32,348 bases of DNA, taken from Promethearchaeota archaeon (GTDB taxonomy: Archaea; Asgardarchaeota; Lokiarchaeia; Sigyniarchaeales; SOKP01). A program made the translations under genes and the position numbers. Under the pieces are notes generated by a model, which saw only the letters and a program-made list of their open reading frames with translations, was not told the DNA's origin and ran no database searches. Location: NCBI GenBank assembly GCA_048938895.1, contig JBHLLU010000046.1, forward strand, positions 1 through 32,348, read 5' to 3'. Of this stretch, positions 509 to 18,227 are shown piece by piece (the first letter of the stretch is position 1; each line of letters starts with the position of its first letter).

Positions 509-976
509 CTATTCAGGAATAATAACAGAAGGATCTTCTTTTATCTTATCTAGTACAATTTGAGTTTTTACTTCCTCAACTCCTGGAAGGTTTCGCAAAT
601 TCTCAATAAGTCCCATAGAATCTTGATGGTTGAGACATTTTGCCATAATAAATAAAGGATACTCCCCAGTAATTATATACGCATATTTGATCTTATCCAT
701 GAGTTCTATTTTCCTCTTAAGATCATCCAAAGGATATGAAGAATTTACTCTTAGTGATGCCATTACCATTTCACGGTATCCTAAATAACGACAATCTATA
801 AGTGTTACATACTGCTTTATTACTTTTTTTTCTTTTAAACGATTTATCCGCATCCTTATTGATGTTGGGGTTAATTGGATCTGTTTTTCAATATCACGAA
901 GCGATGCCTTGGCATTATCTTGTAGAATACTAAGAATTTGTTTGTCTAATTCGTCTAAATCTATGATTTCGGTCAT
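509..976 (-). CDS. Lrp/AsnC family transcriptional regulator
   Basis: N-terminal LDELDKQILSILQDNAKAS...IRMRINRLKEKKVI HTH and C-terminal RAM domain (ITGEY...PGVEEVKTQIVL). ATG at 976 preferred over the TTG at 988. Confidence 0.92.
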   Translation of the reverse strand: MTEIIDLDELDKQILSILQDNAKASLRDIEKQIQLTPTSIRMRINRLKEKKVIKQYVTLIDCRYLGYREMVMASLRVNSSYPLDDLKRKIELMDKIKYAYIITGEYPLFIMAKCLNHQDSMGLIENLRNLPGVEEVKTQIVLDKIKEDPSVIIPE

Positions 977-1012
977 AATTAAATCCAAATTTTGTAAGTT
1001 AAGAAATTATTA

Positions 1013-1170: not shown

Positions 1171-1241
1171 GAATAAAATAAATTATTATTTGTAAACAAA
1201 AAGTCATAAAAAAGTTTAAAAAAAAAAAAAGGTTGAAAAAA

Positions 1242-1478
1242 ATGGCTGAATCAGTATTAGAATCAGTATTCGATTATACTGGCTTAAAATGTCCTATGCC
1301 AGTATTGAAAACGAAGAAGGAATTAAAAAAGTTGAGTTCTGGTCAAATTATTAAGGTTATTGCCGATGATGTTGGAGCAAAAAAGGATATTCCCGCCCTG
1401 TTAAAGAAAATTGGCGACGAATTACTTGAAGTTAAAGAAGAAAACGGAAATATTGAGTTTACGATTAAAAAGACTTAG
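1242..1478 (+). CDS. tusA: TusA/SirA family sulfur carrier protein
   Basis: DYTGLKCPMP (CPxP motif), ADD..AKKDIP, about 78 aa. ATG at 1242 follows AAGGTTG. Confidence 0.92.
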   Translation: MAESVLESVFDYTGLKCPMPVLKTKKELKKLSSGQIIKVIADDVGAKKDIPALLKKIGDELLEVKEENGNIEFTIKKT

Positions 1479-1503
1479 AAATTTCAATAGGGAGTTAACA
1501 ATT

Positions 1504-1872
1504 ATGTCTAAATACGTTTTTTTCATTAGTACGGAGCCATACAAGTATCAAGCTGTTGATACTCTGATTGAAATAGGAAATGCTGCAATTAAAAAGGGAC
1601 ATGAAATCTCAGGGATATTTTTTTTTGGTACAGGGGTTTACAATCTTAAAAAGGATATAAGCTGTGGATCATCAATTCGAAACATCCCTGCGAAAATTGA
1701 ACTTTTTGCGAAGGAAAATAACATACCGATTGCAGGGTGTAGTACGTGGGTAAGTATAACAGGGCTTAAAGAACCAGAATTTATCGATGGAGCATCTGAG
1801 GAAGGATTAGGGGATTTTTCAAATTGGGCAATAGAAGCAGATAAACTAATTGTATTTGGAACGGGAGGTTAA
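1504..1872 (+). CDS. dsrE: DsrE/TusD-like sulfur relay subunit
   Basis: STEPY...KKGHEISGIFFFGTGVYN...GC motif with the Cys at the DsrE active-site position. Likely start is ATG 1504 after GGGAG; the longer ORF call overlaps tusA. Confidence 0.85.
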   Translation: MSKYVFFISTEPYKYQAVDTLIEIGNAAIKKGHEISGIFFFGTGVYNLKKDISCGSSIRNIPAKIELFAKENNIPIAGCSTWVSITGLKEPEFIDGASEEGLGDFSNWAIEADKLIVFGTGG

Positions 1873-1876
1873 GAGA

Positions 1877-2245
1877 ATGATAGAATCAGTAGTAGTTATA
1901 AGTGATTATTCACCGATAGGGAGAAATTCTGCGATAGAAGCGATAAGAATTGGTTCAGGATTTACAGCATTAGGGGAATTCATTGATTGTAAAGTGGTGT
2001 TAACTGGCGATGCGGTTTATTTATTTAATAAATATTGTAATCCAGAAGAAGTTGGAATGGATCCTTTAACAGAAGTGTTAGAAATGGCAGATTTGTCTGA
2101 TTTAGAAGTATATCTTATCGAATCTGCACTTGAAGAAGCCGGGATGACGAAAGATGACTTAACAGAATATGAAAACTTGAAAGTAATCACTTACGATGAA
2201 TTGACGGATTTAATTGAAAATGCAGATACCAGTTTTAGATATTAA
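1877..2245 (+). CDS. dsrF: DsrF/TusC-like sulfur relay subunit
   Basis: SPIG...EAIR...VVLTGDAVY...VYLIESALEEAG; lies between dsrE and dsrH. ATG 1877 after GGAGGT. Confidence 0.8.
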   Translation: MIESVVVISDYSPIGRNSAIEAIRIGSGFTALGEFIDCKVVLTGDAVYLFNKYCNPEEVGMDPLTEVLEMADLSDLEVYLIESALEEAGMTKDDLTEYENLKVITYDELTDLIENADTSFRY

Positions 2246-2261
2246 GGAGGATTGAGAAATA

Positions 2262-2603
2262 ATGACAAACGATCTTGACACAATATATTTGTTTGGATTT
2301 AGTGCATTAGCAGGGAATCATCTAAGGAGATTATTACCCATTTTAAAGAGTCAACTCAAAAAAGAAAAGAAACTTGGGTTAGTTTTAATTCAAGATGGTG
2401 TAATAGGTATATCAACGAAAGGAAAAATACCCAAACAAGTAGAAGAATTGATTAATTTAGATGTTACGCTATTTGCTATGAATTCGGATATAAAAGCTAG
2501 AGGCATTGCTCCAGAATCGATTCATAATAAAATTAAGTCTATAGAATATGATGATCTTATAGATATTATAGATACTACTCCAAAAGTAATTTCTTGGATG
2601 TAG
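2262..2603 (+). CDS. dsrH: DsrH/TusB-like sulfur relay subunit
   Basis: LIQDGV...DIKARG...IEYDDLID...ISW motifs; AGGAGG SD. Confidence 0.85.
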   Translation: MTNDLDTIYLFGFSALAGNHLRRLLPILKSQLKKEKKLGLVLIQDGVIGISTKGKIPKQVEELINLDVTLFAMNSDIKARGIAPESIHNKIKSIEYDDLIDIIDTTPKVISWM

Positions 2604-2716
2604 ATTAAATTAAAAAAATTAATTAATAGATTTTTATAAAAATCTGGATAAACCCAGAAAAAATAGATAATATAAACAACAAATAGTAAAAAAAAAAAAA
2701 AAAGAAGGTGTCATAT

Positions 2717-3139
2717 ATGGCAGAACAAGAAACAATAAATTTTATTGTCAAGGATAAGTCATTCGAGAAATTCGCAATGATGGCTATCCTTGGATCAACA
2801 GGAGATGCCATGGATGTAAAAATGAATTTTTTCTTTACCTTTTGGGGTTTAAATCTTTTAACAAAGAATTATAAACCAAAAGTTGCTGGCATGCCAACCC
2901 CTATGAAAGGTATGGGTGCTAAGATTTTCAGAAAAAGAATGAAAAAATTTGGTATTGAAGATCCATGGGCTTTAATCAAAGACGGTGTCGAAAGTGGTAA
3001 TTTAAAGTTATATCCATGTCAAATGACAATGGATTTAATGGGGATTAAACACGAACAAATTGTCGACTTTGCAGAAGATCCTGTTGGAGCCGCCACATTC
3101 TTAGAAATGGCCAATGGTGGGAGAATAGTTAGTTTGTAA
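2717..3139 (+). CDS. DsrE2-like (DsrE/DsrF/DsrH-like family) sulfur carrier
   Basis: FFTFWGL, YPCQMTMDLMG and VGAATFL motifs. ATG 2717 after AAGGTG. Confidence 0.88.
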   Translation: MAEQETINFIVKDKSFEKFAMMAILGSTGDAMDVKMNFFFTFWGLNLLTKNYKPKVAGMPTPMKGMGAKIFRKRMKKFGIEDPWALIKDGVESGNLKLYPCQMTMDLMGIKHEQIVDFAEDPVGAATFLEMANGGRIVSL

Positions 3140-3182
3140 AATTAATTAAAACAATTTTTTTTTATTTTATATTTCAAAAAAG

Positions 3183-3746
3183 GTGATGGAAACGTCTGAT
3201 GTAAAAGAAGAATCAAGGGAATTTAAGACAGACGAAGATTTTGATAAAGATTTTTTTAAAAATATTGAGAGAAAATCTAATATTTGGCAGTGCATCCAAT
3301 GCGGAACATGTACCGCAAGTTGTGAAAGTGGAAGATGGACTGCCTTAAAGACTCGTTCGATTATTAGAAAAGTAGTCTTGGGAGATTTATCAGTATTAGA
3401 CGATCCAGATATTTGGCTCTGTACAACTTGTTATCAGTGTTATGAACGATGTCCGCGTGATGTAAGGCCTACTGATGTAATTATGGAATTGCGAAATTAT
3501 GCAACGAAAAGAGGAAATATTTCACCCAATCATAGGGCAGTTGTAGGTTATTTGAAGAATTTTGGACATGCTGTACCTATAAATGATGAGGTAAGAAAAC
3601 GAAGAGTCGAATTAGGATTAGAAGAATTACCTCCTACTGCATTTAGATTTAAGCAAGAGGGGGATGATAAAGATTTAAAAAATATTGAAGAGAAAATGTT
3701 TGATTTACCTCCTGTTAAGGAGGAAAAAGAGAAGGAGGAGACGTAA
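3183..3746 (+). CDS. hdrC: Heterodisulfide reductase subunit C
   Basis: CIQCGTCTASC and IWLCTTCYQCYERCPR two-[4Fe-4S] motifs; GHAVPIN. Confidence 0.93.
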   Translation: MMETSDVKEESREFKTDEDFDKDFFKNIERKSNIWQCIQCGTCTASCESGRWTALKTRSIIRKVVLGDLSVLDDPDIWLCTTCYQCYERCPRDVRPTDVIMELRNYATKRGNISPNHRAVVGYLKNFGHAVPINDEVRKRRVELGLEELPPTAFRFKQEGDDKDLKNIEEKMFDLPPVKEEKEKEET

Positions 3747-3749
3747 AAT

Positions 3750-4667
3750 ATGGTTAAAGAAAATACTTTTGCGTTCTTTTTAGGGTGTTTGATGCCAAAT
3801 CGATATCCGGCAATAGAAAAATCGACAAAATTTGTAATGGAAAAACTTGGATATGAATTATTAGATATGGAAAGAGCTACCTGCTGTCCAGCTCCAGGAG
3901 TTTTTCGATCATTTAACAAGGTAGACTGGATGGTTGCAGCTGCGAGAAATTTATGTATTGCCGAACAGATGGATGCTGACATATTAACAGTTTGTAATGG
4001 ATGTTTCGGAACACTCCAAGAAGTCAATAAACATTTAAAAGCTAATGAAGAACATCGTGAGATGGTCAATGAAAGGCTAAAGGAGATTGGGGATTATGAA
4101 TTTAAAGGGACTATTGACGTACGACATGTAATGGAAGTTCTAGGTTATGAAGTGGGACCTTGGGGTATTGAAGATCTCATCGTTAGAAAAGCGAATATTA
4201 AAGCAGCTATCCATTACGGTTGCCATTTCTTAAAACCGACCAGAATCAGAGAGATTGAAAGTTCTGAGGGACCAACAATTATAGAAGAATTTGTAGAAGC
4301 ATTAGGTGTCGAATCGGTAAGGTTTAAAGAACAATTAACATGCTGTGGTGCTGGTGGTGGAGTAAAAGCTTATGATGGAAATGCAAGTATGACGATTTTT
4401 GGAGAAAAAATGAAGAATATCGATGAGGTCAAGCCTGATATAATTCTTGATATTTGTCCATTTTGTCATTTGCAATTTGAGACAGGTCAAGATTATCTAA
4501 ACAAGAACAAAAGTTGTAATTATGATTATCCAGTTATTCATATCTCCCAACTTACTGCCTATTGTATGGGTATGGATCAAGAATTTATTGGTCTTCAGTA
4601 CCAATTAATGGGCAGAGATTATATCTTTGGGGGAGAAGAATTAAAAAAAGAAGAAGAGGCAGTTTAA
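3750..4667 (+). CDS. hdrB: Heterodisulfide reductase subunit B (methanogen-type)
   Basis: Two CCG domains: FFLGC, CCPAPG, CNGC, HYGCH, CCGAGGG, CPFCHLQF. Confidence 0.95.
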   Translation: MVKENTFAFFLGCLMPNRYPAIEKSTKFVMEKLGYELLDMERATCCPAPGVFRSFNKVDWMVAAARNLCIAEQMDADILTVCNGCFGTLQEVNKHLKANEEHREMVNERLKEIGDYEFKGTIDVRHVMEVLGYEVGPWGIEDLIVRKANIKAAIHYGCHFLKPTRIREIESSEGPTIIEEFVEALGVESVRFKEQLTCCGAGGGVKAYDGNASMTIFGEKMKNIDEVKPDIILDICPFCHLQFETGQDYLNKNKSCNYDYPVIHISQLTAYCMGMDQEFIGLQYQLMGRDYIFGGEELKKEEEAV

Positions 4668-4668
4668 A

Positions 4669-6696
4669 TTGACTATAAAAGAAGAAGTTAAAGAAACAGA
4701 AAATTTAGGGGAAAAGGCCGAAACTGAAGAAAGCGAAGAACCACGAATAGGTGTATTCGTATGTCACTGTGGACACAACATTGCCGGAACTGTGGACGTT
4801 GCTAAAGTTGCGGAATATGCTTCGAAATTACCAAATGTAGTGAAAGCTGAACACTATATGTTTATGTGTTCTAAGCCAGGAGTACAAATGGTAAAGGACT
4901 CCATAGAAGAACTTGGAGTAAATAGGACTGTAGTTGCTTCGTGTTCTAAAAATCAGCATGGCAAAACTTTTGCCAAAGCGATTGAAGAAGTTGGATTGAA
5001 CAAACATCGTCATCAACAAGTAAATATAAGAGAATACGATAGTTGGGTTCACCAAAAAGAAAAAGAAAAAGCAACTCAAAAGGCTATGAGGCTTGTCGAA
5101 GCAGGTGTGAATCGTTCAAGGAAGTTGGAAGATGTTGAAACAAGAAGAATACCAACTACCAAAGCTGCATTAGTTATCGGAGCAGGGATTGCTGGTTTAC
5201 GATCTGCATATGATATGGCAGAATTAGGAATTCCAGTAGTGTTAGTCGAAAAAGAATCTACAATAGGAGGACATATGACTCGATTAAATAAAACATTCCC
5301 AACTTTAGAATGTCCACAGTGTTCAATTTCGCCACTCACCAATGGTGTTGCAAATCACCCCTTAATAGATCTTTACACAAATGCCCAAATTAAAAGTGTT
5401 GAAGGCTCATTAGGGAATTTCGAAGTCGAAATCGAAATAAAACCCAGATATGTGAAAGATAACTGTACCTCTTGTGGTGAATGCGCAGCACATTGTCCTG
5501 TAGAAGTACCAAGCGAATGGGATATGGGAATGTCAATGAGAAATGCGATTTATAAAGCATATCCTCAGGCAATACCCGCTACATATGTTCGAGACAAAAA
5601 AAACTGTATTGAGTGTAATACATGTGTAAATGTCTGTCCAGTACAAGCCGTTGATTTTTCTATGGAAACTGAGACTAAAACCGTAAAAGTTGGCTCAATA
5701 ATAGTTGCTGCGGGGTATGATGAGTACGATCCTACTGAAATTGAACCTTATCATTATAGTCAAGAAGGATATGAAGATGTTATTACTCAACTAAAACTAG
5801 AAAGAATGTTATCACCAACTTCGCTTACGAATAGTCAGGTATTAAGACCATCTGATGGAAAAATTCCTGAAAGTGTGGTTATGATCCAATGTGTAGGCAG
5901 TCGAAATGATCAAGTAGGAAATAAGTATTGTACTGGTGTCTGCTGCAAGTTCGCTATTAAAAACGCAAGAATAATAAAAGAAATGTATCCTGATACTGAA
6001 ATGTCAATATGTTATATTGATATAAGAACTCCAGGATTAAACTTTGAAGAGTTATATAAATCTGCTCAAGAGATTGGAGTTAGATTTATCCGGGGGAGAC
6101 CATCTGAAATCATAAAAGATCCAATAACAGGTGAACTAAAAGTAATTGTTGAAGATACACTAAGCCAAACACCACTACAAATAGATGCTGATTTAGTAGT
6201 CCTTTCTGCTGCAATGGTTCCTCCAGAAGGAATTGGTCCACTTGGTTCAAAACTTCAAGTTCTAAGGTCAAAAGAAGGGTTTTTAAAAGAATTTCATATT
6301 AAAATGAATCCTACTCTTAGCAGCAAAGGAGGAATCTTTTTAGCTGGTGCGATTCAAGGACCTAAGGATATCTCTGAAACTGTTGCTCATGCTGGAGGTG
6401 CAGCTGCATTAGCAGCAGCTCCGTTAGTTAGAGGATATATCGAAAAAGAGATGCTAGTTCCTACGGTAGACTATGATTTATGTGTGAATTGTGGCCTCTG
6501 TAAAACGATATGTGCACCAGCAGCAATTACTGTTGATGAAAATGGAAAACCTATCATTAATGAGGTTGCATGTAAATCTTGTGGAATGTGTATGCCAGTA
6601 TGTCCTACAGGTGCAATTCAATTGAGAAATTTCACGGATGATCAATTATTAGATGAAATAATTGCCGTATCTGGTGGAGGTGCTGTGTGCGAATGA
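4669..6696 (+). CDS. hdrA: Heterodisulfide reductase subunit A (flavin-bifurcating type)
   Basis: RIGVFVCHCG, VIGAGIAG, KTFPTLEC, inserted and C-terminal ferredoxin domains, QCVGSR, GPKDI. TTG start. Confidence 0.96.
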   Translation: MTIKEEVKETENLGEKAETEESEEPRIGVFVCHCGHNIAGTVDVAKVAEYASKLPNVVKAEHYMFMCSKPGVQMVKDSIEELGVNRTVVASCSKNQHGKTFAKAIEEVGLNKHRHQQVNIREYDSWVHQKEKEKATQKAMRLVEAGVNRSRKLEDVETRRIPTTKAALVIGAGIAGLRSAYDMAELGIPVVLVEKESTIGGHMTRLNKTFPTLECPQCSISPLTNGVANHPLIDLYTNAQIKSVEGSLGNFEVEIEIKPRYVKDNCTSCGECAAHCPVEVPSEWDMGMSMRNAIYKAYPQAIPATYVRDKKNCIECNTCVNVCPVQAVDFSMETETKTVKVGSIIVAAGYDEYDPTEIEPYHYSQEGYEDVITQLKLERMLSPTSLTNSQVLRPSDGKIPESVVMIQCVGSRNDQVGNKYCTGVCCKFAIKNARIIKEMYPDTEMSICYIDIRTPGLNFEELYKSAQEIGVRFIRGRPSEIIKDPITGELKVIVEDTLSQTPLQIDADLVVLSAAMVPPEGIGPLGSKLQVLRSKEGFLKEFHIKMNPTLSSKGGIFLAGAIQGPKDISETVAHAGGAAALAAAPLVRGYIEKEMLVPTVDYDLCVNCGLCKTICAPAAITVDENGKPIINEVACKSCGMCMPVCPTGAIQLRNFTDDQLLDEIIAVSGGGAVCE

Positions 6697-7145
6697 GTGA
6701 TTGTGAAGCAATTGATGAAGGAATTCAAGAAAAAATACAAAATGTAGTAATTTTTATGTGTAATGAGTGTGGTCAAGGATCGGCAAATACTGCTGGAGTT
6801 GCTCGAATGGGTTATGATCCAGCTATAAGAATCGTTAGAGTTCAATGCACAGGACAAGTTGGTCCTATACAAATTATGGATGCCTTAAACAATGGTGCTG
6901 ATGCAGTTGCATGTGTAGGATGCTGCTTAGGAGCGTGTCATTTTTTCAATGGAAATATCTTATCAATGCATAGAATAAAATTGATGAAAAAGTTATTTAA
7001 AGAATTAGGCTATAGTGATCAATTTGTAAATCAATACACTTCTCGTGCTGCTGAGGGTGAAACAGCAGTTGGAGATTTTGAAGATATTGTGGAACGATTA
7101 TCAACAGCAATAAATGAAGAGGGGACTATAAAAGATGGATGTTAA
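6693..7145 (+). CDS. mvhD: MvhD/FlpD [2Fe-2S] adaptor subunit
   Basis: FMCNEC...RIVRVQCTG...GADAV..VGC..GACHF.NGN. ATG overlaps the hdrA stop (ATGA). Confidence 0.9.
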   Translation: MSDCEAIDEGIQEKIQNVVIFMCNECGQGSANTAGVARMGYDPAIRIVRVQCTGQVGPIQIMDALNNGADAVACVGCCLGACHFFNGNILSMHRIKLMKKLFKELGYSDQFVNQYTSRAAEGETAVGDFEDIVERLSTAINEEGTIKDGC

Positions 7146-8370
7146 AGTGTTTCAATTTAATGGTTGTAATAAATGCTTCAATGAATCTTTATTATTGAAG
7201 TTAGATTCGAATCTCAATGTAGAATATATCAAAGATCCTAAAACTTGGAAGGAAGAGAAAATAGAAACCGCTGTAATAACAGGTTATGTGCTCCCAACCG
7301 ATAAGATATTGCTTAAGAAGATAAAAACTAATGCAGATAGAGTTATCGCTTATGGTAGTTGCACTGTAAGTGGTGGAGTTTTTGCTTTAGCAAATCAGCA
7401 TGGGCATGAAATAACTCCTTTAAAGAACTTAGTCGAAAATATAACTGAAATTGAAGGATGTTTAGGAGAAGTTGAGGAGTTAAAATCAGTAATTAATGAA
7501 GAAGAACTACAAAAGCCAAAGAAACTATGTGATTTATGCACTAGAAGGGCCACCTGTGACTATTTAGATAAAGTAAACCGTCAAATTGAATTGGATGATG
7601 AGGAGACGTGTTTCAATGATTTAGGTTTTCTCTGTAATGGGTTTATTGCACGAGAATGTAAAGAGCGTTGTATTGATTATAATACACCATGTAGAGGCTG
7701 TAAACAATTAATTGAAAGATCAGGAATCCGTATGCTCGGTATGTTTGGAACACTCATGGGTAACATTGAAGTGGCTACTGAACATTCTGCTAAAGGCGCT
7801 ACAGACAAACTAGCTGATGAAGATGATGAAATAACAGAAAGTTTACCTGATATCCTTGGAAATTTCTTTAGATTTACATTAACTACTTCGGGTTTACCTA
7901 AAGGAAGAATTCCATCCACAGGTACTCTACTAGAAGATTTATTTACTGGAAGATTAATCGAAGAATTACCCTTGATAACTGGACTATTAGGAGGAGATAA
8001 ATCAATTTCACTTACACTTAAAATTATTGAATCCTATGAAAAAGCAAATGATATTCAAATTGGAGAACAGATAAAGAAATATAGAAAAGAGCTCTTAGAT
8101 TTAGAAGAAAAGTTGCATAAGGCTATAGATAAAGAAGATGCAGAACAATATAAGGAAATCACAGAGGAAATCCGAAAAATTGCAGGAAATATGAATTTAT
8201 CAAATGTATTTTTTGGTGGATTCAAATCAAAGATCCAAAAAGAAGGTAATTTTGAAGATTATAAAACCCACATTTTTGAAGTGGTTGAAGGAACGTATAA
8301 AAACGGTTCTGTAGAATATAGCATAGATTCTGAAGGAATTGTTAAAGAAATAAAAATCATGGAGGGATAA
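7135..8370 (+). CDS. MvhG-like hydrogenase small-subunit Fe-S protein with long C-terminal extension
   Basis: GCNKC, YGSCTVSGG, EGC, LCDLCTR, CF...GFLCNG...C...C...PCRGC, D..GNFFRFTL, then about 150 extra residues. Confidence 0.72.
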   Translation: MDVKVFQFNGCNKCFNESLLLKLDSNLNVEYIKDPKTWKEEKIETAVITGYVLPTDKILLKKIKTNADRVIAYGSCTVSGGVFALANQHGHEITPLKNLVENITEIEGCLGEVEELKSVINEEELQKPKKLCDLCTRRATCDYLDKVNRQIELDDEETCFNDLGFLCNGFIARECKERCIDYNTPCRGCKQLIERSGIRMLGMFGTLMGNIEVATEHSAKGATDKLADEDDEITESLPDILGNFFRFTLTTSGLPKGRIPSTGTLLEDLFTGRLIEELPLITGLLGGDKSISLTLKIIESYEKANDIQIGEQIKKYRKELLDLEEKLHKAIDKEDAEQYKEITEEIRKIAGNMNLSNVFFGGFKSKIQKEGNFEDYKTHIFEVVEGTYKNGSVEYSIDSEGIVKEIKIMEG

Positions 8371-8372
8371 AT

Positions 8373-10838
8373 ATGAGTTTTGAATTATTAAGGAAAGAGG
8401 TAATTGATGCGGGATTATGTCAAGGATGTGGATTATGTGCTGGTTCATGTAAACATATAGAAATGGATATTTTACGTCCGACATTAAAAGATTATTGTAT
8501 CCTTGAAAGAAATGGTCAGGACTGTGGTAAATGTTATCAAAGCTGTCCACAAGTAATTCAGAAGAGATTCGAACAAAGACAACCTAAAGCTGTATATTCA
8601 TTACGAAGTAAAGACTCCACAATATTAAAGAAAGCAGCAAGCGGAGGAGTAGTAACCACCCTAGCAAAAAATCTTCTAGAAAATGAGGAACTTGCCGAAA
8701 TTGTAATGGTTCAAGATGTTGATGATAAACCTCAAGCAGAGATTGTAACTGATCCCGATGAAGCAGTAGAGAAAGCTGGTGTTGTCTATGGACGCTCAGG
8801 TGTTTTAGAAAAATTAGTTAACGTTGTTGGTAAGACCTTCGAACCTATAGGTATTGTAGGAGTACCTTGTGAAATGCGAGGTGCTGCCGATCTAGAGAAA
8901 GAAATGAATAGAGAAATCCTAAAAATTGGTTTATTCTGCAATTCTCATATGCGAACAGAACAGACTGATAAGGGATTAATTTGTTCTCCATGTTGTAATG
9001 GTTGCCCATCAGGAGTAAATGCCCAAGGCTATATCTCTTTAATTAGACAAGGACAATATCAGGACGCTGTTGATTTAATTCGTGAAAATAATCCACTTCC
9101 TTCTATATGTGGAAGAATTTGTACTAATGAATGCGAGCATGGATGTACTTTAATTGGAGATGATCATCCTGTAGCAATTCGCGAATTAAAGAAATTTGTA
9201 ACAGAATGGGAAATTGAGCAATCTATAGAATTAAAATCAAAGAGTAAACCCAAGAAAAATGCAAAGAAAGTAGCAATAATAGGTTCTGGACCAGCAGGAT
9301 TGACAGCAGGATATTTTCTGAGAAGAATGGGGTATGCTCCAACCATTTTCGAAAAGTCAGACCAAACAGGAGGAATGTTGAGGTTTGGAGTACCACAATT
9401 TAGATTGCCTAATTATGTTTTAGATTATGATATAAATCGGATCAAGAATTCTGGAGTCGAAATTGTTCTTAATAAACCATTAGGACCAGAAATGACTATT
9501 GATGACTTAAAGAATGAAGGATACGAAGCTATATTCATAGCTACTGGGCAATATAAACCAAGAACATTACATTTAGAAGGAGAAGATTTACCTAATGTAC
9601 ATGTAGCTATTACATTTCTTATGGATAGAAAGTATCGCTACTGGGAAAACAAAGAAGAATTTAAGGGAAAAAGTATTGGAATAATTGGTGGAGGTCCTGT
9701 TGCCGTGGATGTTGCACAAACCGCTCTTAGATTAGGCGCTGAAAAAATTCATCTCGTCGATATCATGACTGAAGAACAACTTGAATTAACTCTAAAAGAA
9801 ATCCCTGAAAAAGAGCGAGAGTTTATGGAATATCACTTTACCACATCTACTTCGAAAATTACTAAAAAAGATGATGATAAGCTAGTGTTGAATTTTTATA
9901 AAATCAAATGGGGTGCTCCTGATGAGACTGGAAGAAGGTCTTTTGAAAAAATCAAGGATTCAGAATATGAAATTCCTATTGATTCGATTGTAATTGCTAT
10001 TGGCCAAGCTGTTGATTTTGACCAAATTGATATCGCTACGGATAATAAATTAGAAAAGGAACGTAATAAAATTAAAGTGAATGAAGTGACTTTCGAAACG
10101 AACATTCCAGGTGTATTTGCGGGAGGAGATATTGTAAACAACTCAAAAGCAGTAGCAATCGCAGCAATTGCGCATGGAAAAGAAGCAGCATTGTCTATTG
10201 ACAGGTACATAAAAGGTGAAAGTTTAATTGAAGGCAGATATAAGCAAGATAAAATGTTCTTTAGAGGTCCAAAAAAACCACCAAAAGATTACTCTCCAAA
10301 ACCAGAGACATTAAGCGAGGCAACTGAAGATATTGTTTGGAGTTTTGAAGAAGTTGAACAACAATTTAATGAGGAAATGGCTCTCCAAGAGGCACGTAGA
10401 TGCTTAAGTTGTAATCATTTCTGCTCCCATTGTCAAGATTTCCCTGCTATTTATTCTGATTTAACTGCAGGAGAAGTTGGATCTCAAGAAGGATTTACTA
10501 CTGTAGTAGTCTGGACTGATAGAGGGAAAGAAATTATTGATAATGGGATCCAGAATGGTCTATTTGAAGAAGGAGAAGTAAATAGTGAAGAATTAAATGA
10601 AGCAATCAATCTTAAATCGAAAAGAGAGCTCTTAACTTTCGAAAAAACACCTAGGCAGCAAGTATTGGATTACATTACTCTTCAAGGACCGACTACGATT
10701 ACCAACATGGCTAAGAAATTAAATTTAGATCCTAAAAAAGTACGATATGAAGCCCTTCGGTTAGCACAAATGATGATGGTTGAGATGAAAGTTGACACTG
10801 GAATGCAAGAACCAATTTTTACTTTAATATGTGATTAA
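8373..10838 (+). CDS. FrhB/FdhB-like protein with inserted GltD/NfnB-like FAD oxidoreductase and C-terminal winged helix
   Basis: Ferredoxin and FrhB motifs (SGGVVT, VGVPC, IGLFC), then SPCCNGCP...CGRIC...CE...IGSGPAG...GVFAGGD...EARRCLSC, then the FrhB C-part (CSHCQDF..SDLTAGEVGS..GFTTVVVWTDRG), then a wHTH-like tail. Confidence 0.85.
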   Translation: MSFELLRKEVIDAGLCQGCGLCAGSCKHIEMDILRPTLKDYCILERNGQDCGKCYQSCPQVIQKRFEQRQPKAVYSLRSKDSTILKKAASGGVVTTLAKNLLENEELAEIVMVQDVDDKPQAEIVTDPDEAVEKAGVVYGRSGVLEKLVNVVGKTFEPIGIVGVPCEMRGAADLEKEMNREILKIGLFCNSHMRTEQTDKGLICSPCCNGCPSGVNAQGYISLIRQGQYQDAVDLIRENNPLPSICGRICTNECEHGCTLIGDDHPVAIRELKKFVTEWEIEQSIELKSKSKPKKNAKKVAIIGSGPAGLTAGYFLRRMGYAPTIFEKSDQTGGMLRFGVPQFRLPNYVLDYDINRIKNSGVEIVLNKPLGPEMTIDDLKNEGYEAIFIATGQYKPRTLHLEGEDLPNVHVAITFLMDRKYRYWENKEEFKGKSIGIIGGGPVAVDVAQTALRLGAEKIHLVDIMTEEQLELTLKEIPEKEREFMEYHFTTSTSKITKKDDDKLVLNFYKIKWGAPDETGRRSFEKIKDSEYEIPIDSIVIAIGQAVDFDQIDIATDNKLEKERNKIKVNEVTFETNIPGVFAGGDIVNNSKAVAIAAIAHGKEAALSIDRYIKGESLIEGRYKQDKMFFRGPKKPPKDYSPKPETLSEATEDIVWSFEEVEQQFNEEMALQEARRCLSCNHFCSHCQDFPAIYSDLTAGEVGSQEGFTTVVVWTDRGKEIIDNGIQNGLFEEGEVNSEELNEAINLKSKRELLTFEKTPRQQVLDYITLQGPTTITNMAKKLNLDPKKVRYEALRLAQMMMVEMKVDTGMQEPIFTLICD

Positions 10839-10872
10839 TTAAATTTAAAATATTACCAAGAGGTTAAACAAT

Positions 10873-11109
10873 ATGAAATATGATATGGAATTGAATGTTT
10901 GTGGCTCTGTATGCCCTGTACCTGCTTTAAAAACCAAAAAACAACTTATTAAAATGAGACCTGGTACAGTTTTAAAAGTTATAACAGACTACAAACCGGC
11001 AAGCGAATCTGTTCCACGAGATTTGGCTAAAACTAAGCATAAACATTTAGGAACAGAGTTTATTGAAGACGATGAGCAATGGTACATCTATTTTGAAGCA
11101 GTAAAGTGA
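10873..11109 (+). CDS. tusA: Second TusA/SirA family sulfur carrier
   Basis: LNVCGSVCPVP...GTVLKVITD; GAGGT SD. Confidence 0.9.
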   Translation: MKYDMELNVCGSVCPVPALKTKKQLIKMRPGTVLKVITDYKPASESVPRDLAKTKHKHLGTEFIEDDEQWYIYFEAVK

Positions 11110-11131
11110 GTGCTCATTCCTTAAAATTATT

Positions 11132-11164
11132 GTTTTTATAATTCTTTTTTTTTAATTAATTTTT
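11132..11164 (+). terminator. Oligo-T tracts, candidate archaeal terminator of the hdr operon
   Basis: Several T runs (up to T9) shortly after the last gene. Confidence 0.35.
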
Positions 11165-11431
11165 CATTACATTTTACATCATTATTAAAATCATAACTAA
11201 ATTAATAATATGTTAATTATACTCATAAGACCATAATTCAACTTAAGAAAGATATATTTTAATTAAGTAAAAAAGAATTAATGCAAGTTAGGGAATTTAT
11301 TAATGAAGGGAGATGGAATATTATTTTCAATTAGTAAAGAATTTCAAAGAAAGAAAAAATTGTACCTACTTCAATAGATTTTATAAGTAGATGCCAAATG
11401 AATGTACTTTTTTATCAAAATTTTATTTCCT

Positions 11432-13351
11432 TCAAGCGAAGTGCTTTTCAATTAATGTTCCAAGACTCTCCCAATTTTCCGATACTGAACAAGATTCTTC
11501 TAGATTTTCAATCAGAATTTGGTAATGGTTATCAAATTCTTCAATGAGAGTCAAAAGTTTTTGATGAAAAATTGTCAAGTTTTCTTTTACAATTAAAGCA
11601 AATATAATTTGGTTTGTTGTGTTAAAATCGAAGATTATTTTCCTATCTCCATGATCTATTATCTTGATTAATCTTTCAGCTTGGATTACCTCTTTTAAAA
11701 TAGTCATCATTCCAACCAAACCACCTGAGATTAGAAGAGAATCATTTTTTTTCTCGATTTCCATAAATGGATAATCATAAAGCAGAACTCCTGAATTACA
11801 AAAGATGTAAATTTGTAGTAGGAAGTCTGTCCAGTTAATTATTGGTAATCTTAATATGAATTTTGAACCCTCATTTCTTCCTTCGGATTCAACAAGAATT
11901 TGACCTCCATGTAAATCGATAATTTCTTTTGAAAAATATAATCCCAAATAGAAATTTTTTAGATTTGATTTAGTTCTTGATGCAAAAAGTGTTTTTTTCT
12001 CTTTTTCATTTAAATTCACACTTTCATTTTTTAGTATAATTTCAGCAAAATCGTTATTTTGCTGTAAATATATGGAAATCTCACTTTTTTTTGAAGCATT
12101 ATTAATAATATGAAGCAGAATATCCTTAATCACCTGTTTTATTCTATGCTTATCAATTTCAGCATACAAATCTTCAGCCAAATCTAAATTCATTGTAAAA
12201 TTTAGCTTTTTTATTTTTATCATTGTCTCATCTACAGATTCAGTAATGGTTTTAACAAGACTCTCAATTTGTCTTTTTAGCCTTATTTTCTCAGTTTCTA
12301 TTCTAGAAATATCAACTATCCGCCCAACTAAGTTCATAGATTTTTTTCCTCCTTTTTTTATCATTTCTAAAAGTTTTATAGCGTTTTGGTCTAATTTGTC
12401 TTTATATGAATCTAAAAGTGTCTGTGATGCATCAAACATATCATTTAATGGTGCTTTCATTTCTTCTGAAGTTTGAGCTGTTAATTTTTTTTTCATATCA
12501 TCAATTTTCCTTAACCGTTCGTTCTCCCCTCTAATGATATTGTCCACTAATTTCCTTTCAGTTATATCTTTCATCAAAACTTGAACATATTTTTCGTTTC
12601 TAAATTTTAAAGAAGAAAAGATAGCTTCTATAGTAGAACTATTAGCTTTATCATTTATAAATTCAAATTCTACAATTTCACTCAATTCAAAATTAATAAC
12701 ATTATAAATCAACTCATCACACGAATCTATGACTTCTTTAGATTTTGGGAAGAGATCAAAAAAATTCTCCCCTATAAAATCTTCTTTTGATCTTTTTAGA
12801 TATAATTCTGCAGCAGTATTACAATCAAAAATATTCTTATTCGCTTCAAGTAAAAATACCGAAAATTGAAGATTATCAACAAAATTTCTAAAAATTTCTT
12901 CTGAATCTTTAAAGGAGTGTTCAATTTTTTTTTTATCTGTAATATCGCAAATTATATCTATTAATGCAGGTTGTCCATTAAAAGAAAGAACAAAAGCATT
13001 ACTGAATTCAAAAATCTTTTCTTCTGTCGAATTAAGATTAGTATATAGAGCTTCAAATTTACTTATTGTATTATAATTTATTTTATTAAAACAACAAGAT
13101 TCACAAATAATATTTTTATTCATCATCACCTCAAAACAAAGATTTCCAATCTGATTAGTTCCAAATTCATCTTCAGCTTTCTTATTCATATACAATATTT
13201 TCATATCTTTGGAAATAATAACAATTAAATCATTACTATTTGATAAGATAAAATTCAACAGCGCTTCAGATTCTTTTATTGGATTCTCTGGATTCTTGAA
13301 TTTTATTATACTTCGGTTTATATGTTCGTTCAATATTCCATTCTCCACCAA
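11432..13351 (-). CDS. PAS-PAS histidine pseudokinase with C-terminal longin-like domain
   Basis: Two PAS/PAC domains ending in DIT. H-box reads TSEEMKAPL (no His). N, G1 and G2 boxes are degenerate, but HGGQILVESEG..GSKF is retained. C-terminus IYIFCNSGVLLY...DSLLISGGL...IDHGDRKIIF. Confidence 0.82.
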   Translation of the reverse strand: MVENGILNEHINRSIIKFKNPENPIKESEALLNFILSNSNDLIVIISKDMKILYMNKKAEDEFGTNQIGNLCFEVMMNKNIICESCCFNKINYNTISKFEALYTNLNSTEEKIFEFSNAFVLSFNGQPALIDIICDITDKKKIEHSFKDSEEIFRNFVDNLQFSVFLLEANKNIFDCNTAAELYLKRSKEDFIGENFFDLFPKSKEVIDSCDELIYNVINFELSEIVEFEFINDKANSSTIEAIFSSLKFRNEKYVQVLMKDITERKLVDNIIRGENERLRKIDDMKKKLTAQTSEEMKAPLNDMFDASQTLLDSYKDKLDQNAIKLLEMIKKGGKKSMNLVGRIVDISRIETEKIRLKRQIESLVKTITESVDETMIKIKKLNFTMNLDLAEDLYAEIDKHRIKQVIKDILLHIINNASKKSEISIYLQQNNDFAEIILKNESVNLNEKEKKTLFASRTKSNLKNFYLGLYFSKEIIDLHGGQILVESEGRNEGSKFILRLPIINWTDFLLQIYIFCNSGVLLYDYPFMEIEKKNDSLLISGGLVGMMTILKEVIQAERLIKIIDHGDRKIIFDFNTTNQIIFALIVKENLTIFHQKLLTLIEEFDNHYQILIENLEESCSVSENWESLGTLIEKHFA

Positions 13352-13356
13352 GATTA

Positions 13357-14910
13357 TTATGTAATATTTAAATTTAATTCATTCATCCATTCATTAATAG
13401 TTGGGGGCTCAACGAGCTCAAAAAAAATTATAAATTTACTTCCTTTAGTATAGTCACCTTCAATTTTATTTTGTACGCAAATATAACCTTTGTATTTATC
13501 CACAATTTTCTTTACTAATGATAGTCCTAATCCCATTCCATATCCGTTTTTTTCTGTTTTTTCAGTTCTTTGAAAAATATTTTTTTTAATTTCGGGTGGT
13601 ATACCTCTTGCGTTGTCTATTAATTCAACTTTAAGATATTCATTCCCATGCTTTCGTACTTTTGAGAAATATATTGAAATCTCTATAATTGAGCAATCAT
13701 TATGCAATACCGAGTTTATTAGGATATTATCAAAAATCTCTTGTAAGAAATCGTTGGCCCTGATGTATATAGGTTTTTCAAAATGAAAAACTTCGATTTT
13801 AATTCTTTTATTCTGAAATCCATTAGTAATGTAGTCTATTGATCTTCTTAATACATCTCTGACATCCATCGTTGTCAAGTCTTGTCCAGTTCCTTCAATT
13901 TCAGAAATTCGCCTGACATTAAAAGTTAGCTTTGCTGCTCTTTTAACTTGTTCTTTAGCAATATTAACTATTTCTGAGATGTTACTCTTAAATTTAATCC
14001 CATTTAATTTATAAGCTATTAATTCAAGAGAAGAATTTATTATCTGAAGAATATTATTCATATCATGGGTAAACAAGTCTTTGAGAAAATTCGCTTGTTT
14101 GTAGGCTTTCTGATATTTCTTTTCTGATTTTATTAAACTGTTTTCTGTTTTTTTTCTATATGTTATATCTCTTATTATCTCAATTACCGCGGGTTCACCC
14201 TTGAAATTTAATATTGGAGAGCATTTATATTCCAAATATTTTTTTTCTTTTGTCTGAGAATTTATGAAATGTTTTTCACAGGTAATATTATTATTATAAT
14301 TTTTCATTAATTTGTTAAAAGAACAATATTCACAGGTGTCATCTCTATTCATTAAAACTTTATAGCACAACTCTCCTATATGGAAATTTCCAAAAATCTT
14401 TTTTGCTTTTTGGTTCATGTATAAGATTCTTAAGTTTTTCGAAATAACAATTACAGATTCATCAATATTTGATAATATTAGATTTAACTGTTCTTCCGAT
14501 TGTCTAATTTCGATTTTGTGTTTTTCTTGTTCAGTGATATCTCTTCCAACTTTTACAATTTGCTCAACTATTCCTTTATTTGTTTTGACTGGATATGCTA
14601 TCAACTCTAAAAATATATCTTTTCCATCTTTGTAATGAGTGTGTATGGATTTGCTTAAATTTCCTGTTTTTATAACATCTATTAAAGGACATTTACATTC
14701 TGGAGGTTTACAAATATGATTTAAACCATGTGTGAATTTATAACATTTCTTCCCAATAGCATCGTCTTTAGAAGTTTTGTATTTCTCACAGAATGACTTG
14801 TTTACATCAAGTATATTGTAACTCGTATCCAAAATAGTTATTTCCTCATAAATTGAATCAATTATTAATCGTAGATCTTCAATTTTGTAATTATTTTCTA
14901 TTTCACTCAT
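13357..14910 (-). CDS. Cytoplasmic PAS-PAS sensor histidine kinase
   Basis: Two Cys-rich PAS domains, H-box FTHDMNN, N-box FDNILIN, G1 IDNARGI, G2 GMGLGL. Confidence 0.92.
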   Translation of the reverse strand: MSEIENNYKIEDLRLIIDSIYEEITILDTSYNILDVNKSFCEKYKTSKDDAIGKKCYKFTHGLNHICKPPECKCPLIDVIKTGNLSKSIHTHYKDGKDIFLELIAYPVKTNKGIVEQIVKVGRDITEQEKHKIEIRQSEEQLNLILSNIDESVIVISKNLRILYMNQKAKKIFGNFHIGELCYKVLMNRDDTCEYCSFNKLMKNYNNNITCEKHFINSQTKEKKYLEYKCSPILNFKGEPAVIEIIRDITYRKKTENSLIKSEKKYQKAYKQANFLKDLFTHDMNNILQIINSSLELIAYKLNGIKFKSNISEIVNIAKEQVKRAAKLTFNVRRISEIEGTGQDLTTMDVRDVLRRSIDYITNGFQNKRIKIEVFHFEKPIYIRANDFLQEIFDNILINSVLHNDCSIIEISIYFSKVRKHGNEYLKVELIDNARGIPPEIKKNIFQRTEKTEKNGYGMGLGLSLVKKIVDKYKGYICVQNKIEGDYTKGSKFIIFFELVEPPTINEWMNELNLNIT

Positions 14911-14923
14911 GAGTTTATCATGT

Positions 14924-15190
14924 TTACTTATAATTAGTTAATATTATAGTTCGCAAAAACTCTTTATATCTTGAACGAAGAGTAACAATTATTCCAACGA
15001 CTTTTTTTTCTATTTTTTTTTGATATAATATTTTTGGCTTTGAATTATTTTCTTTATTTAATTTCTCGATAAAGTTAGAGTCTTTCTCTAAGATCAATAA
15101 ATTTTTTATTTCCTCAATATTACTATTTCTAATGTTTCTTTTTTTTTTTAAAAATTCAACATAGCTCCCGATTTCAATTAAGCAATTCAA
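14924..15190 (-). CDS. Hypothetical protein (doubtful)
   Basis: Fills the gap between co-oriented genes, but is low-complexity K/N/I-rich with a TTG start and no motif. Confidence 0.3.
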   Translation of the reverse strand: MNCLIEIGSYVEFLKKKRNIRNSNIEEIKNLLILEKDSNFIEKLNKENNSKPKILYQKKIEKKVVGIIVTLRSRYKEFLRTIILTNYK

Positions 15191-15207
15191 TTTTTTCCAC
15201 TTTTACT

Positions 15208-16017: not shown

Positions 16018-16093
16018 TTTTAGAAGACCTCTTTATGATATCACCAGCTAAATTTTACAATCTAAATGAAAGGAATTGTAAATCTGTGATTAT

Positions 16094-16543
16094 CTATGGT
16101 ATAGTGCTTATACTGCTTATATTTTCGTCTTGATCAGCTTCCATGAAATGTTTATATAATTTATGAATAGTCTGATTTAATTCAAATTGAATCACACCCA
16201 AATTTAAAAATAGTGGAAACATGAGTGCAAGCCTTATGTCTTCAGTCACATATTCAAGATGGATCACAAAAGCTTCGTTATCAAGCTGATCTCCTGCCTG
16301 AATAGAAATTTGTTTAATAAAATTTTCTTCTCTAATTATTTCAACACTATTTTCTGCTAAGGTAACAATACTAGCGCATATCGCTGCAATACTTTGGAAA
16401 AATTCATCATCTTCATTATTATTAGCTCCTTCTATTGTTATAATAAAGCCATCTTCTGTAAATAAAGTGGAACATACTATACCAGTTCTTTCTCTAAATG
16501 ATTTTAAAATATTTTGAATTTTACTTTCTCTTAGATTAGCCAT
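16094..16543 (-). CDS. Roadblock/LC7 (MglB-like) domain protein
   Basis: GIVCSTLFTEDGFII...IAAICASIVTLAE...NLGVIQFEL; overlaps the GTPase stop by 8 nt. Confidence 0.85.
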   Translation of the reverse strand: MANLRESKIQNILKSFRERTGIVCSTLFTEDGFIITIEGANNNEDDEFFQSIAAICASIVTLAENSVEIIREENFIKQISIQAGDQLDNEAFVIHLEYVTEDIRLALMFPLFLNLGVIQFELNQTIHKLYKHFMEADQDENISSISTIP

Positions 16544-18063: not shown

Positions 18064-18079
18064 GGAGGATTGAGAAGAA

Positions 18080-18205: not shown

Positions 18206-18227
18206 TACTAAAAAGAGGTAGACGAAA

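Follow-up and report, generated by a model that had tools for sequence, protein, structure and literature searches.

A methanogen-type Hdr cluster with a putative hydrogenase remnant and TusA/DsrE sulfur carriers in Lokiarchaeia, a candidate system for cleavage of protein-bound S-S bonds

The substrate of the heterodisulfide reductase (Hdr) HdrABC in anaerobes that lack methyl-coenzyme M reductase is a long-standing question (PMC5296606, PMC10667645). The electron-input modules established or proposed for Hdr in PMC12350162 and PMC5296606 are Mvh, Fdh, Elp, Flx and HdrA2. Here we describe a gene cluster at positions 1233-11109 (+) of a 32,348-nucleotide stretch of DNA (contig JBHLLU010000046.1 of assembly GCA_048938895.1, hereafter the window) from a Promethearchaeota archaeon of the Lokiarchaeia. 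In this cluster a methanogen-type Hdr is encoded together with sulfur carriers of the TusA and DsrE families. We suggest, giving the proposal an even chance, that the cluster encodes one Hdr system, fed by NADH or by reduced coenzyme F420 (F420H2) and probably bifurcating, which cleaves S-S bonds on sulfur bound to TusA and DsrE proteins.

The closest solved analogue is Elp-Hdr (ElpABC-HdrABC) of M. marburgensis, where HdrABC receives its electrons from three proteins: a cofactor-free, truncated FdhA, an F420H2 oxidase resembling FrhB, and a homologue of MvhD (Nomura et al. 2025, PMC12350162). The cluster of the window likewise combines a putatively dead, truncated subunit with an FrhB-type flavoprotein and an MvhD homologue, and is hydrogenase-free. 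However, unlike in Elp-Hdr, the putative remnant comes from a [NiFe] hydrogenase and not from FdhA (ElpA), the FrhB protein encloses a GltD/NfnB cassette, whose fingerprint is of the NADH type, and genes for sulfur carriers belong to the cluster. The predicted target also differs from the substrate described for Elp-Hdr, the heterodisulfide of coenzymes M and B (CoM-S-S-CoB), and we consider the cluster an analogue of Elp-Hdr, not a member. With the methanogen Mvh-HdrABC it shares homologues of HdrA, HdrB, HdrC, MvhD and MvhG with all cluster ligands. Unlike in Mvh (group 3c [NiFe] hydrogenase), there is no functional large subunit; a cysteine-free remnant of ~155 residues is fused to MvhG, FrhB::GltD replaces the large subunit, five sulfur-carrier genes are attached, and the host is without McrA and ComA. 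HdrA2B2C2 of Methanosarcina acetivorans is F420H2-dependent and hydrogenase-free and has CoM-S-S-CoB as its substrate (Yan et al. 2017, PMC5296606). HdrA and MvhD of the window fit the HdrA2 model best, but they are separate genes here, and the MvhG remnant and FrhB::GltD are additional.

Three further systems are related to the cluster through their sulfur side. FlxABCD-HdrABC of Desulfovibrio vulgaris is a hydrogenase-free, NADH-linked system of a non-methanogen, for which a DsrC disulfide is the postulated substrate (Ramos et al. 2015, as cited in PMC6470260 and PMC5296606). In contrast to it, the input here consists of the MvhG remnant and FrhB::GltD instead of Flx, and the genome has no DsrC; TusA/DsrE carriers would replace it. 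The sHdr-LbpA systems of sulfur oxidation, which work with TusA/DsrE3/DsrE2 transferases, are always encoded with TusA and DsrE-family carriers, and TusA co-purifies with sHdr proteins (Tanabe et al. 2024, PMC11094781). Two TusA, DsrEFH and a DsrE2B-type protein accompany the Hdr of the window as well. Unlike sHdr, the cluster has a single hdrCBA set without the shdrC1B1AHC2B2 (or type II) arrangement or LbpA, a full HdrA with MvhD and a methanogen-type HdrB, and its presumed direction is reductive. Finally, DsrEFH/TusBCD is likewise made up of three paralogous subunits, encoded in the same E-F-H order, and a cysteine of the DsrE in the window aligns with one of A. vinosum DsrE. However, the DsrC/TusE partner is missing from the genome, the DsrH of the window is cysteine-free, and the subunits score far under the cut-offs of the TusD and TusC equivalogs.

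The cluster comprises 12 open reading frames (ORFs) on one strand, separated by intergenic gaps of -10 to +105 nt, in the order tusA-dsrE-dsrF-dsrH-dsrE2B-hdrC-hdrB-hdrA-mvhD-[MvhG-like]-[FrhB::GltD]-tusA. The genes were identified by Pfam and NCBIfam searches of the window ORFs, and these scans bear out the gene list, coordinates, tight one-strand spacing and CCPAPG motif of the first-pass annotation, a reading made from the sequence alone. The 'mvhG-like' and 'frhB/gltD' genes that it named are present, but each is one fused gene, MvhG with a vestigial large subunit in the first case and FrhB enclosing GltD/NfnB in the second. The family scan covered the cluster ORFs plus ORFs of at least 90 aa elsewhere in the window, and among them, as had been claimed, there is no DsrC/TusE, DsrAB, LbpA/GcvH or MnmA family.

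The Hdr of the cluster is supported as methanogen-type, as originally described, by model scores, structural matches and tree grouping. HdrC (3183..3746, +), with two [4Fe-4S] clusters (4Fe-4S dicluster), reaches 178.5 bits against TIGR03290, above the equivalog cut-off of 160, and HdrB (3750..4667, +), with two CCG motifs (CCG 1.1e-36 in two stretches), reaches 371.7 bits against TIGR03288, above 345.15; both are NCBIfam models of CoB-CoM Hdr. HdrB also matches solved methanogen HdrB (PDB 9sfi_C, 7.5e-92; 5odc_B, 8.2e-91). Its CCPAPG motif at residues 45-50 is invariant in 27/27 aligned orthologues, and ten CCG-motif cysteines, the ligands expected for two non-cubane [4Fe-4S] clusters, are retained in 70/70 sequences. 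HdrA (4669..6696, +) has 675 aa with flavin adenine dinucleotide (FAD) and 4xFer4 domains. Its best model is HdrA2 (NF040770, 740 bits over positions 1-640 of 777 against a cut-off of 1100), followed by canonical HdrA (NF041778, 632 bits against 1400). HdrA stays below the HdrA2 cut-off, with MvhD encoded separately here. The [2Fe-2S] connector MvhD (6687..7145, +; FlpD/MvhD PF02662, 2.2e-31), whose gene shares 10 nt with the end of hdrA, matches positions 639-770 of the HdrA2 model with 100 bits. Eight cysteines of HdrC are retained in 48/48 sequences and the Fe-S cysteines of HdrA in 58-59 of 59; over HdrABC, MvhD, the MvhG part and FrhB::GltD, each Fe-S or CCG cysteine is kept in at least 55/57 orthologues, mostly in all. 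In the HdrB tree the cluster-linked HdrB from Loki- and Thor-type loci form one clade (support 100/100), which joins the HdrB of methanogens and Thermoplasmata (88/89), apart from seven paralogues of the same genome. The tree contained no sHdr references, and the assignment as not sHdr is made because of the gene arrangement, the HdrA length and the equivalog scores.

The first-pass annotation overlooked that the electron input is apparently not a hydrogenase and would be formed by a nickel-free MvhG~MvhA remnant together with the FrhB::GltD flavoprotein. In the 411-aa protein encoded next to MvhD (whole ORF 7135-8370, +; Oxidored_q6 3.5e-10), residues 1-255 (7135..7899) align with MvhG up to its last residues (PDB 9sw2_E, 2.8e-13; 5odc_E, 1.5e-11), and the best Foldseek match of the full-length model is MvhG 5odi_E (3e-7). 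Thirteen cysteines of this part, enough for three clusters, are retained in 55-57 of 57 orthologues. No cysteine follows residue 189, and residues 256-411 (7900..8370) are cysteine-free.

These residues were assigned by profile and structure comparisons. In tblastn, the tail matches contig C12, where the genome encodes a small and a large subunit of its own, and the match reads across the stop codon that separates the two genes. Alignment with the genome's own large subunit by hhalign places residues 264-329 on residues 40-105 (E 0.0018, probability 15%), and the top matches of the tail profile against the PDB are to FrhA 44-105 (E 0.04). The three alignments agree in register and place the tail over the Ni-binding region near the N-terminus of [NiFe] large subunits, with GLLGGD of the window protein standing where the large subunit has RxCGxC. 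When the model of the tail alone (pLDDT, the predicted local distance difference test score, of 63) was compared with 48161 chains by a wide VIA-align search, ranks 1-12 were all of large-subunit type, by entry title [NiFe] large subunits or complex-I/NuoD, FHL, Mbh and Mbs homologues (Z 8.2-6.6), with ~130 of 162 residues aligned; MvhA 5odc_F had Z 6.0. Foldseek with the C-terminal domain model alone found nothing in the PDB at E <= 0.001. From these lines, weak singly but agreeing, we read the protein as MvhG fused to a vestigial, nickel-free MvhA. The remnant is probably a scaffold, because it is conserved (mean column identity 64%). The window has no PF00374 match, and real large subunits are encoded on contigs C12 and C102. 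The one on C12 (L088, 4516-7149) belongs to a real [NiFe] hydrogenase adjoining hdrB-hdrC and an AsnC-type helix-turn-helix (HTH) gene. It has 435 aa with an N-terminal CGIC, ends in '...DPWIK' and misses the usual C-terminal Cys motif, with a split or selenocysteine-type C-terminus being possible; its small subunit is unusually long (440 aa).

The second component of the input arm, FrhB::GltD (8373..10838, +; FrhB_N + Fer4_20 + Pyr_redox_2 + FrhB_C), is a flavoprotein of 821 aa. It starts with a ferredoxin-like N-terminus, continues with FrhB_N, a nested GltD/NfnB cassette and FrhB_C, and ends with a winged-helix-turn-helix-like tail. The cassette matches NfnA (PDB 9n5u_A, 8.8e-93), a StnC-type chain (8oh5_C, 1.5e-79) and also NfnB-type chains, and the FrhB halves match an ElpB-type chain best (8rja_E, 2.4e-23), then Fsr (7np8_A, 2.9e-23) and 8riu_B (3e-17). 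The Fe-S cysteines are retained in 47/47 sequences. In a Rossmann fold, an acidic residue ending beta-2 points to NADH over NADPH. Such a residue, Asp or Glu, closes beta-2 of the second Rossmann fold in 46/47 orthologues, which suggests that FrhB::GltD uses NADH rather than NADPH. F420 is plausible as a cofactor as well, because the genome has CofH above cut-off (440 bits against 374). The GltD cassette is variable, being present in 46 loci and missing from 4 (L052, L065, L069, L071). In the tail (residues 743-816, window 10599-10838) the winged-helix-like match is to PF25212 HVO_A0114 (E 4e-4, below cut-off).

On the sulfur side, TusA1 (1233..1478, +; PF01206, 1.9e-24; TTG at 1233, likely start ATG 1243) and TusA2 (10873..11109, +; PF01206, 1.3e-17) both match the TusA fold with the Cys-Pro-x-Pro motif present. 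The CPxP cysteine C20 of TusA1 is retained in 57/57 sequences and C14 of TusA2 in 56/56. The DsrE/TusD-like subunit (1504..1872, +; PF02635, 2.3e-14; the ORF opens at 1411, likely Met at 1504) matches A. vinosum DsrE (PDB 2hy5_A, 2.7e-9) and remains below the TusD equivalog (47.6 bits, cut-off 89.25). One of its cysteines, retained in 40/40 sequences, is aligned with a cysteine of A. vinosum DsrE that we take to be the catalytic Cys78. The DsrF/TusC-like subunit (1877..2245, +; PF02635, 2.9e-12; the ORF opens at 1850) matches TIGR03010 below cut-off (3.9e-7) and the TusC equivalog with 30 bits against 94.15, and retains one cysteine in 51/51 sequences. The DsrH/TusB-like subunit (2262..2603, +; PF04077, 1.1e-11) scores above cut-off against TIGR03011 (52.3 bits, cut-off 49.2) and is without any cysteine. 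The DsrE2B-type carrier (2708..3139, +; PF13686 (DrsE_2), 4e-23; likely ATG 2717) matches PDB 2qs7_A (1.7e-18, with the cysteine aligned), an entry named as archaeal DsrE2B by Tanabe et al. 2024 (PMC11094781). Its C104 is retained in 61/61 sequences, and its score against the NCBIfam DsrE2 model is 53.5 bits (cut-off 210). Median identity among orthologues is 89% for TusA2, 80% for DsrE2B and 88% for HdrB; TusA1, DsrF and DsrH are looser (59-66%). To call this set a complete persulfide relay, as was done at first, is an overstatement: the cluster has neither a sulfur donor (rhodanese, cysteine desulfurase) nor a classical acceptor. The genome holds a second dsrE-dsrF-dsrH set (L087, 4728-11441, contig C137). 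It is 38-47% identical to that of the window, and its neighbours on either side are two enzymes of the Oxidored_FMN + Pyr_redox_2 type and an HdrD-like protein of 401 aa (Fer4 + CCG).

To follow the cluster across genomes, HdrB was searched in one genome per species, which gave 80 loci. In 69 of them HdrB is 66-95% identical; they come from Promethearchaeota/Lokiarchaeia-type metagenome-assembled genomes (a few with other Asgard labels), P. syntrophicum MK-D1 and L. ossiferum. Three loci are Thor-type (HdrB 55-56%), and the remaining eight, from methanogens, Thermoplasmata or Helarchaeota (45-48%), have hdrCB alone in common. All 12 genes stand in the order of the window in 34/80 loci, and most of the remaining loci are colinear and broken by contig ends, which excludes a chance arrangement. 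Thor-type loci read hdrCBA-mvhD-mvhG*-frhB (no GltD)-tusA2, and one (L071) has dsrEFH downstream; they keep the carriers in another arrangement. Local deviations are found as well. In L052 (6443-9334) and L065 (13622-16515), with HdrB 90% identical, FrhB is without GltD, and after its gene come tusA2 and one more hdrC-hdrB pair (26-37% identity); L039 has no tusA2 match, and the dsrH of MK-D1 is only 28% identical.

The vestigial-domain profile is present in 81/400 Asgard genomes, 64/134 genomes of the family and 32/53 of the genus. With this query it was found in 1/5 genomes reached through the loci (the Thor-like one) and in 0/40 and 0/329 genomes of two methanogen-side phyla. Five congeners that are 95-99% complete and have no profile match are also without an orthologous HdrB (best identity 41-43%). 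The module is hence accessory within the genus. DsrE2B is likewise found in 32/53 congeners. With the vestigial-domain profile as the marker of Hdr and DsrE2B as that of the carriers, 26 of the 53 congeners have both, 15 neither, and 12 are discordant (6 with Hdr only, 6 with DsrE2B only). In 10 of these 12 the marker lies at a contig end, an N-run or a fragment. In the six genomes with Hdr only, it stands < 4.7 kb from the contig start, and dsrE2 would fall off the contig. As to the six with DsrE2B only, two contigs end after dsrE2, one runs into an N-run, one match is a 25-residue fragment, and two are lone tusA-dsrE2 pairs. Apparent carriers without Hdr in G186, G217, G189 and G223 were rejected, as a contig end or N-run follows dsrE2 directly. 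Among the 53 congeners, which are related and are not independent samples, none shows orthologous carriers cleanly separated from Hdr. A link between carriers and Hdr beyond adjacency is thus supported by the conserved order, the joint presence and absence, the Thor rearrangement with carriers kept and the invariant carrier cysteines. A separate observation concerns the assemblies: those of G186, G217 and G189 (L095, L098, L096) break at one place, right after or inside dsrE2, which may come from repeats, hdr paralogues or strain variation.

The module also appears to have its own regulator, overlooked earlier. An Lrp/AsnC-family gene (509..988, -; HTH_AsnC-type 6.2e-11, AsnC_trans_reg 1.8e-9) is divergent from tusA1, and a homologue is attached in 43/45 loci with enough flank, 40 times divergent upstream and 3 times between dsrE2 and hdrC. 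In MK-D1, the genes DSAG12_01139-01151 have the same order as locus L063, and all 13 orthologues are transcribed at 182-348 reads per kilobase per million mapped reads (RPKM; Imachi 2020 Supplementary Table 3). The values in gene order are 271, 273, 285, 201, 348, 191 (Lrp), 271, 305, 318, 293, 265, 304 and 182; in the same table the key hydrogenase-Hdr genes have RPKM 296-371. A second MK-D1 locus in that table holds MvhA, HdrB, HdrC and MvhG, then TusB, TusC, TusD, a COG2391 membrane protein and TusA, and Hdr therefore adjoins sulfur carriers twice in MK-D1.

The host genome (4.65 Mb, 98.74% complete, 7.49% contamination) was searched for the pathways that would define a substrate, including those the first-pass annotation had singled out: CoM synthesis, dsrC/tusE and mcr. 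Neither McrA (PF02249) nor ComA (PF02679) has a match in it, while the controls matched in methanogens. CoM-S-S-CoB is an unlikely substrate, as had been supposed, because both are missing from this near-complete genome. DsrC/TusE (PF04358), sulfite reductase (NIR_SIR) and YeeE-type transporters also have no genome match, and their controls matched. The MnmA search (PF03054) gave weak partial PP-loop matches (best 25.6 bits) and is non-discriminating, its control matching in all 14 genomes. Two GcvH-family genes are found on contigs C75 and C51. The Hdr family itself is expanded: tblastn gives HdrA-like matches on ten contigs besides that of the window, and several of these matches stand in tandem with genes resembling MvhD. 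Seven more HdrB-like genes were also matched, and the expansion extends over contigs C43, C152, C71, C102, C33 and others.

A further locus of this genome combines sulfur carriers and redox enzymes (L100, 1843-8410; contig C144, ~48.8-55.4 kb). It encodes a TusA, a cysteine desulfurase (Aminotran_5, 2.8e-75), a NifU-like scaffold and OsmC; the gene for an HdrD-like CCG protein lies on the other strand. A further product is a fusion protein of 796 aa in which Pyr_redox_2 and a dimerisation domain are followed by rhodanese, TusA and rhodanese. By its domains, the fusion looks like a CoA-disulfide/persulfide-reductase type enzyme with built-in TusA. By analogy, it may serve as a same-genome precedent for TusA-bound sulfur meeting a reductase, in that case a pyridine-nucleotide disulfide reductase.

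From the above we infer complex formation, the electron path, bifurcation, the reductive direction and the docking carrier as follows. The cluster would form one cytoplasmic redox system under the control of the Lrp/AsnC regulator. FrhB with its nested GltD/NfnB cassette would oxidize NADH and/or F420H2. The electrons would then pass through the Fe-S clusters of the flavoprotein to the three clusters of the nickel-free MvhG~vestigial-MvhA scaffold, and, across the [2Fe-2S] cluster of MvhD, reach HdrA at its FAD. The path would divide at HdrA, with ferredoxin as one end and the pair of non-cubane clusters in HdrB, approached through HdrC, as the other. HdrB would cleave an S-S bond other than that of CoM-S-S-CoB, either sulfane sulfur or a mixed disulfide that TusA1, DsrEFH, DsrE2B and TusA2 bear on their invariant cysteines, with the release of H2S. 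As for the carrier docking on HdrB, we would guess TusA2 or DsrE2B, whose conservation is the highest among the carriers. In its narrowest form, the proposal would make this the first Hdr with protein-bound sulfur as physiological substrate, with NADH/F420H2-driven bifurcation acting on a persulfide or mixed disulfide between TusA2 and DsrE2B/DsrEFH and ferredoxin being reduced; this form we hold only tentatively and think more doubtful than probable.

Several points weigh against the proposed system. The link between carriers and Hdr is genomic, not biochemical, and it has exceptions: locus L056 (HdrB 71% identical) has no carrier genes in the 8.4 kb upstream of hdrC, and G227 and G229 carry a lone tusA-dsrE2 pair (63-69% identity) with no module. 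The evidence for the vestigial domain is weak singly (hhalign 15%, PDB E 0.04, Z ~8 on a pLDDT-63 model, Foldseek blank), and the key node of the HdrB tree (88/89) is not strongly supported and lacks sHdr references for comparison. AT-rich gaps with T-runs, of 105 nt at dsrH/dsrE2 and 44 nt at dsrE2/hdrC, could hold an internal terminator or promoter. With these gaps, and since the MK-D1 regulator gene stands between dsrE2 and hdrC, separate transcription units are possible. The RPKM range of the MK-D1 table is narrow, so that 'expressed' is a weak statement meaning transcription and little more. Energetics are also tight. NADH has a potential of about -320 mV and sulfane sulfur one near -270 mV. 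NADH could thus hardly drive ferredoxin reduction with sulfane sulfur as the acceptor, and the bifurcating mode would need a higher-potential S-S bond (a mixed protein disulfide) or F420H2.

Some of the same observations can be explained by assimilatory or biosynthetic mobilisation of sulfur, which we consider unlikely. Hdr would here supply or remove electrons so that sulfur of sulfide, thiosulfate or sulfite loads the TusA/DsrE carriers and is destined for Fe-S clusters, cofactors, thiolated tRNA or cysteine, with no energy-linked electron sink. The Nerearchaeum preprint hypothesises such a 'reductive assimilation of sulfur' via TusA/DsrE persulfides and Hdr in the lack of sulfite reductase, and NIR_SIR is missing from the present genome too. 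By their model annotations, the TusA and DsrE families are biosynthetic in other organisms, and MK-D1 expresses the genes without added sulfur acceptors. However, the absence of both markers from 15/53 congeners, several of them 92-99% complete, would be odd for core biosynthesis. A thiolation enzyme or TusE is neither in the cluster nor clearly in the genome, the separate TusA-cysteine desulfurase-NifU locus exists for biosynthesis, and a full bifurcation-type HdrA with MvhD would be a heavy apparatus for this purpose.

The exceptions listed above would be expected if the cluster were two independent units sharing a neighbourhood and a regulator, the relay serving another acceptor and Hdr reducing a low-molecular-weight disulfide. 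Possible terminator or promoter signals at dsrH/dsrE2 and dsrE2/hdrC, the lrp inserted between dsrE2 and hdrC in 3 loci, L056 without upstream carriers and the lone pairs in G227 and G229 all fit such a division, and the Korarchaeia paper (PMC10667645) raises 'heterodisulfide cofactors other than CoM-S-S-CoB'. Against it, tusA2 stands 3' of the last redox gene, is retained in Thor-type loci and is conserved as much as HdrB. Carriers and Hdr are jointly present or absent apart from assembly breaks, and, with ComA missing, the genome yielded no candidate pathway for a small-molecule thiol. We therefore regard two independent units as improbable.

We assign a similarly small probability to homeostasis of reactive sulfur or selenium, with an Lrp-switched complex that strips excess persulfides, polysulfides or selenium adducts from proteins and carriers. 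An accessory distribution would fit such a niche-dependent protective role, Lokiarchaeota use selenocysteine (PMC11097638), and DsrE4 proteins have been proposed for reactive-sulfur detoxification (PMC11094781). Both TusA do match YedF-type 'selenium metabolism' models, but far below cut-off (42 vs 79 bits and 36 vs 79 bits). No selenium gene turned up among the scanned window ORFs, and detoxification would need no bifurcation-type HdrA.

As an anaerobe that lives by fermentation, the host has no evident oxidant, and an oxidative sHdr-like operation, in which carrier-bound sulfane sulfur is oxidised and the electrons go to NAD+ or F420, is highly improbable in spite of the TusA/DsrE sets that always accompany sHdr and the two GcvH-family genes of the genome, as the arrangement is not hdrC1B1A-hyp-C2B2, LbpA/GcvH is missing from the window with the GcvH genes on other contigs, HdrB is methanogen-type and HdrA is full length with MvhD.

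The earlier suspicion that similar clusters had been noted in Asgard genomes is right in part: a figure legend of the 2025 Nerearchaeum preprint couples TusA/DsrE persulfides to Hdr in an Asgard archaeon. That preprint deals with a hydrogenase-linked Hdr and proposes assimilatory sulfur loading. For MK-D1, the sections of Imachi 2020 considered here name MvhADG-HdrABC alone, and the cluster genes carry automatic names in Supplementary Table 3. In full-text literature searches, which did not extend to preprint supplements, the hydrogenase-less module, the MvhG~MvhA remnant, FrhB::GltD, the Lrp regulator and the accessory distribution were undescribed in Asgard. Added here are the within-genus co-inheritance table, the MK-D1 RPKM values for the module and the TusA-rhodanese-reductase fusion elsewhere in the genome.

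For the question of the HdrABC substrate, the module names concrete candidates, five co-inherited carriers with invariant cysteines. Its presence in the cultured MK-D1 and L. ossiferum, and its transcription, make a bench test with recombinant proteins feasible. After Elp-Hdr, it may be a second, independent case of a catalytic subunit decayed into an electron-wiring scaffold. The proposed system is also relevant to models of hydrogen-sulfur syntrophy that concern the Asgard host in eukaryogenesis. If the narrowest form of the proposal is true, zero-valent sulfur would be a hidden electron sink through which Lokiarchaeia convert NADH into low-potential electrons, hence H2, and a hydrogen-sulfur metabolism with a dead hydrogenase recycled as wiring would exist in the cultured organisms closest to the eukaryotic host lineage.

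The surroundings of the cluster have some features of their own. A T-rich tract (T5, T9, T5) read from the sequence 3' of tusA2 (11110..11185, +) is a possible archaeal terminator, in a genome that is AT-rich. G+C is 0.335-0.372 over the hdr-to-frhB part (window 3001-11000) and 0.25-0.33 in the remaining window; the higher value, together with the patchy distribution in the genus, may reflect coding constraint or mobility. Upstream of tusA1, dsrE2 and hdrC (1219-1234, 2694-2710 and 3175-3185), runs of A (~6 to 15 bases) lead directly into a ribosome-binding motif of the GGT(G) type. Signalling genes crowd window positions 11432-28751. Two of them, for PAS histidine kinases, are convergent with the cluster; others encode two HisKA + receiver proteins and a kinase of 2082 aa that contains at least 10 PAS stretches (22503-28751, -). 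A Roadblock/LC7 protein (18228-18593) lies near a small GTPase-like ORF (16536-17186).

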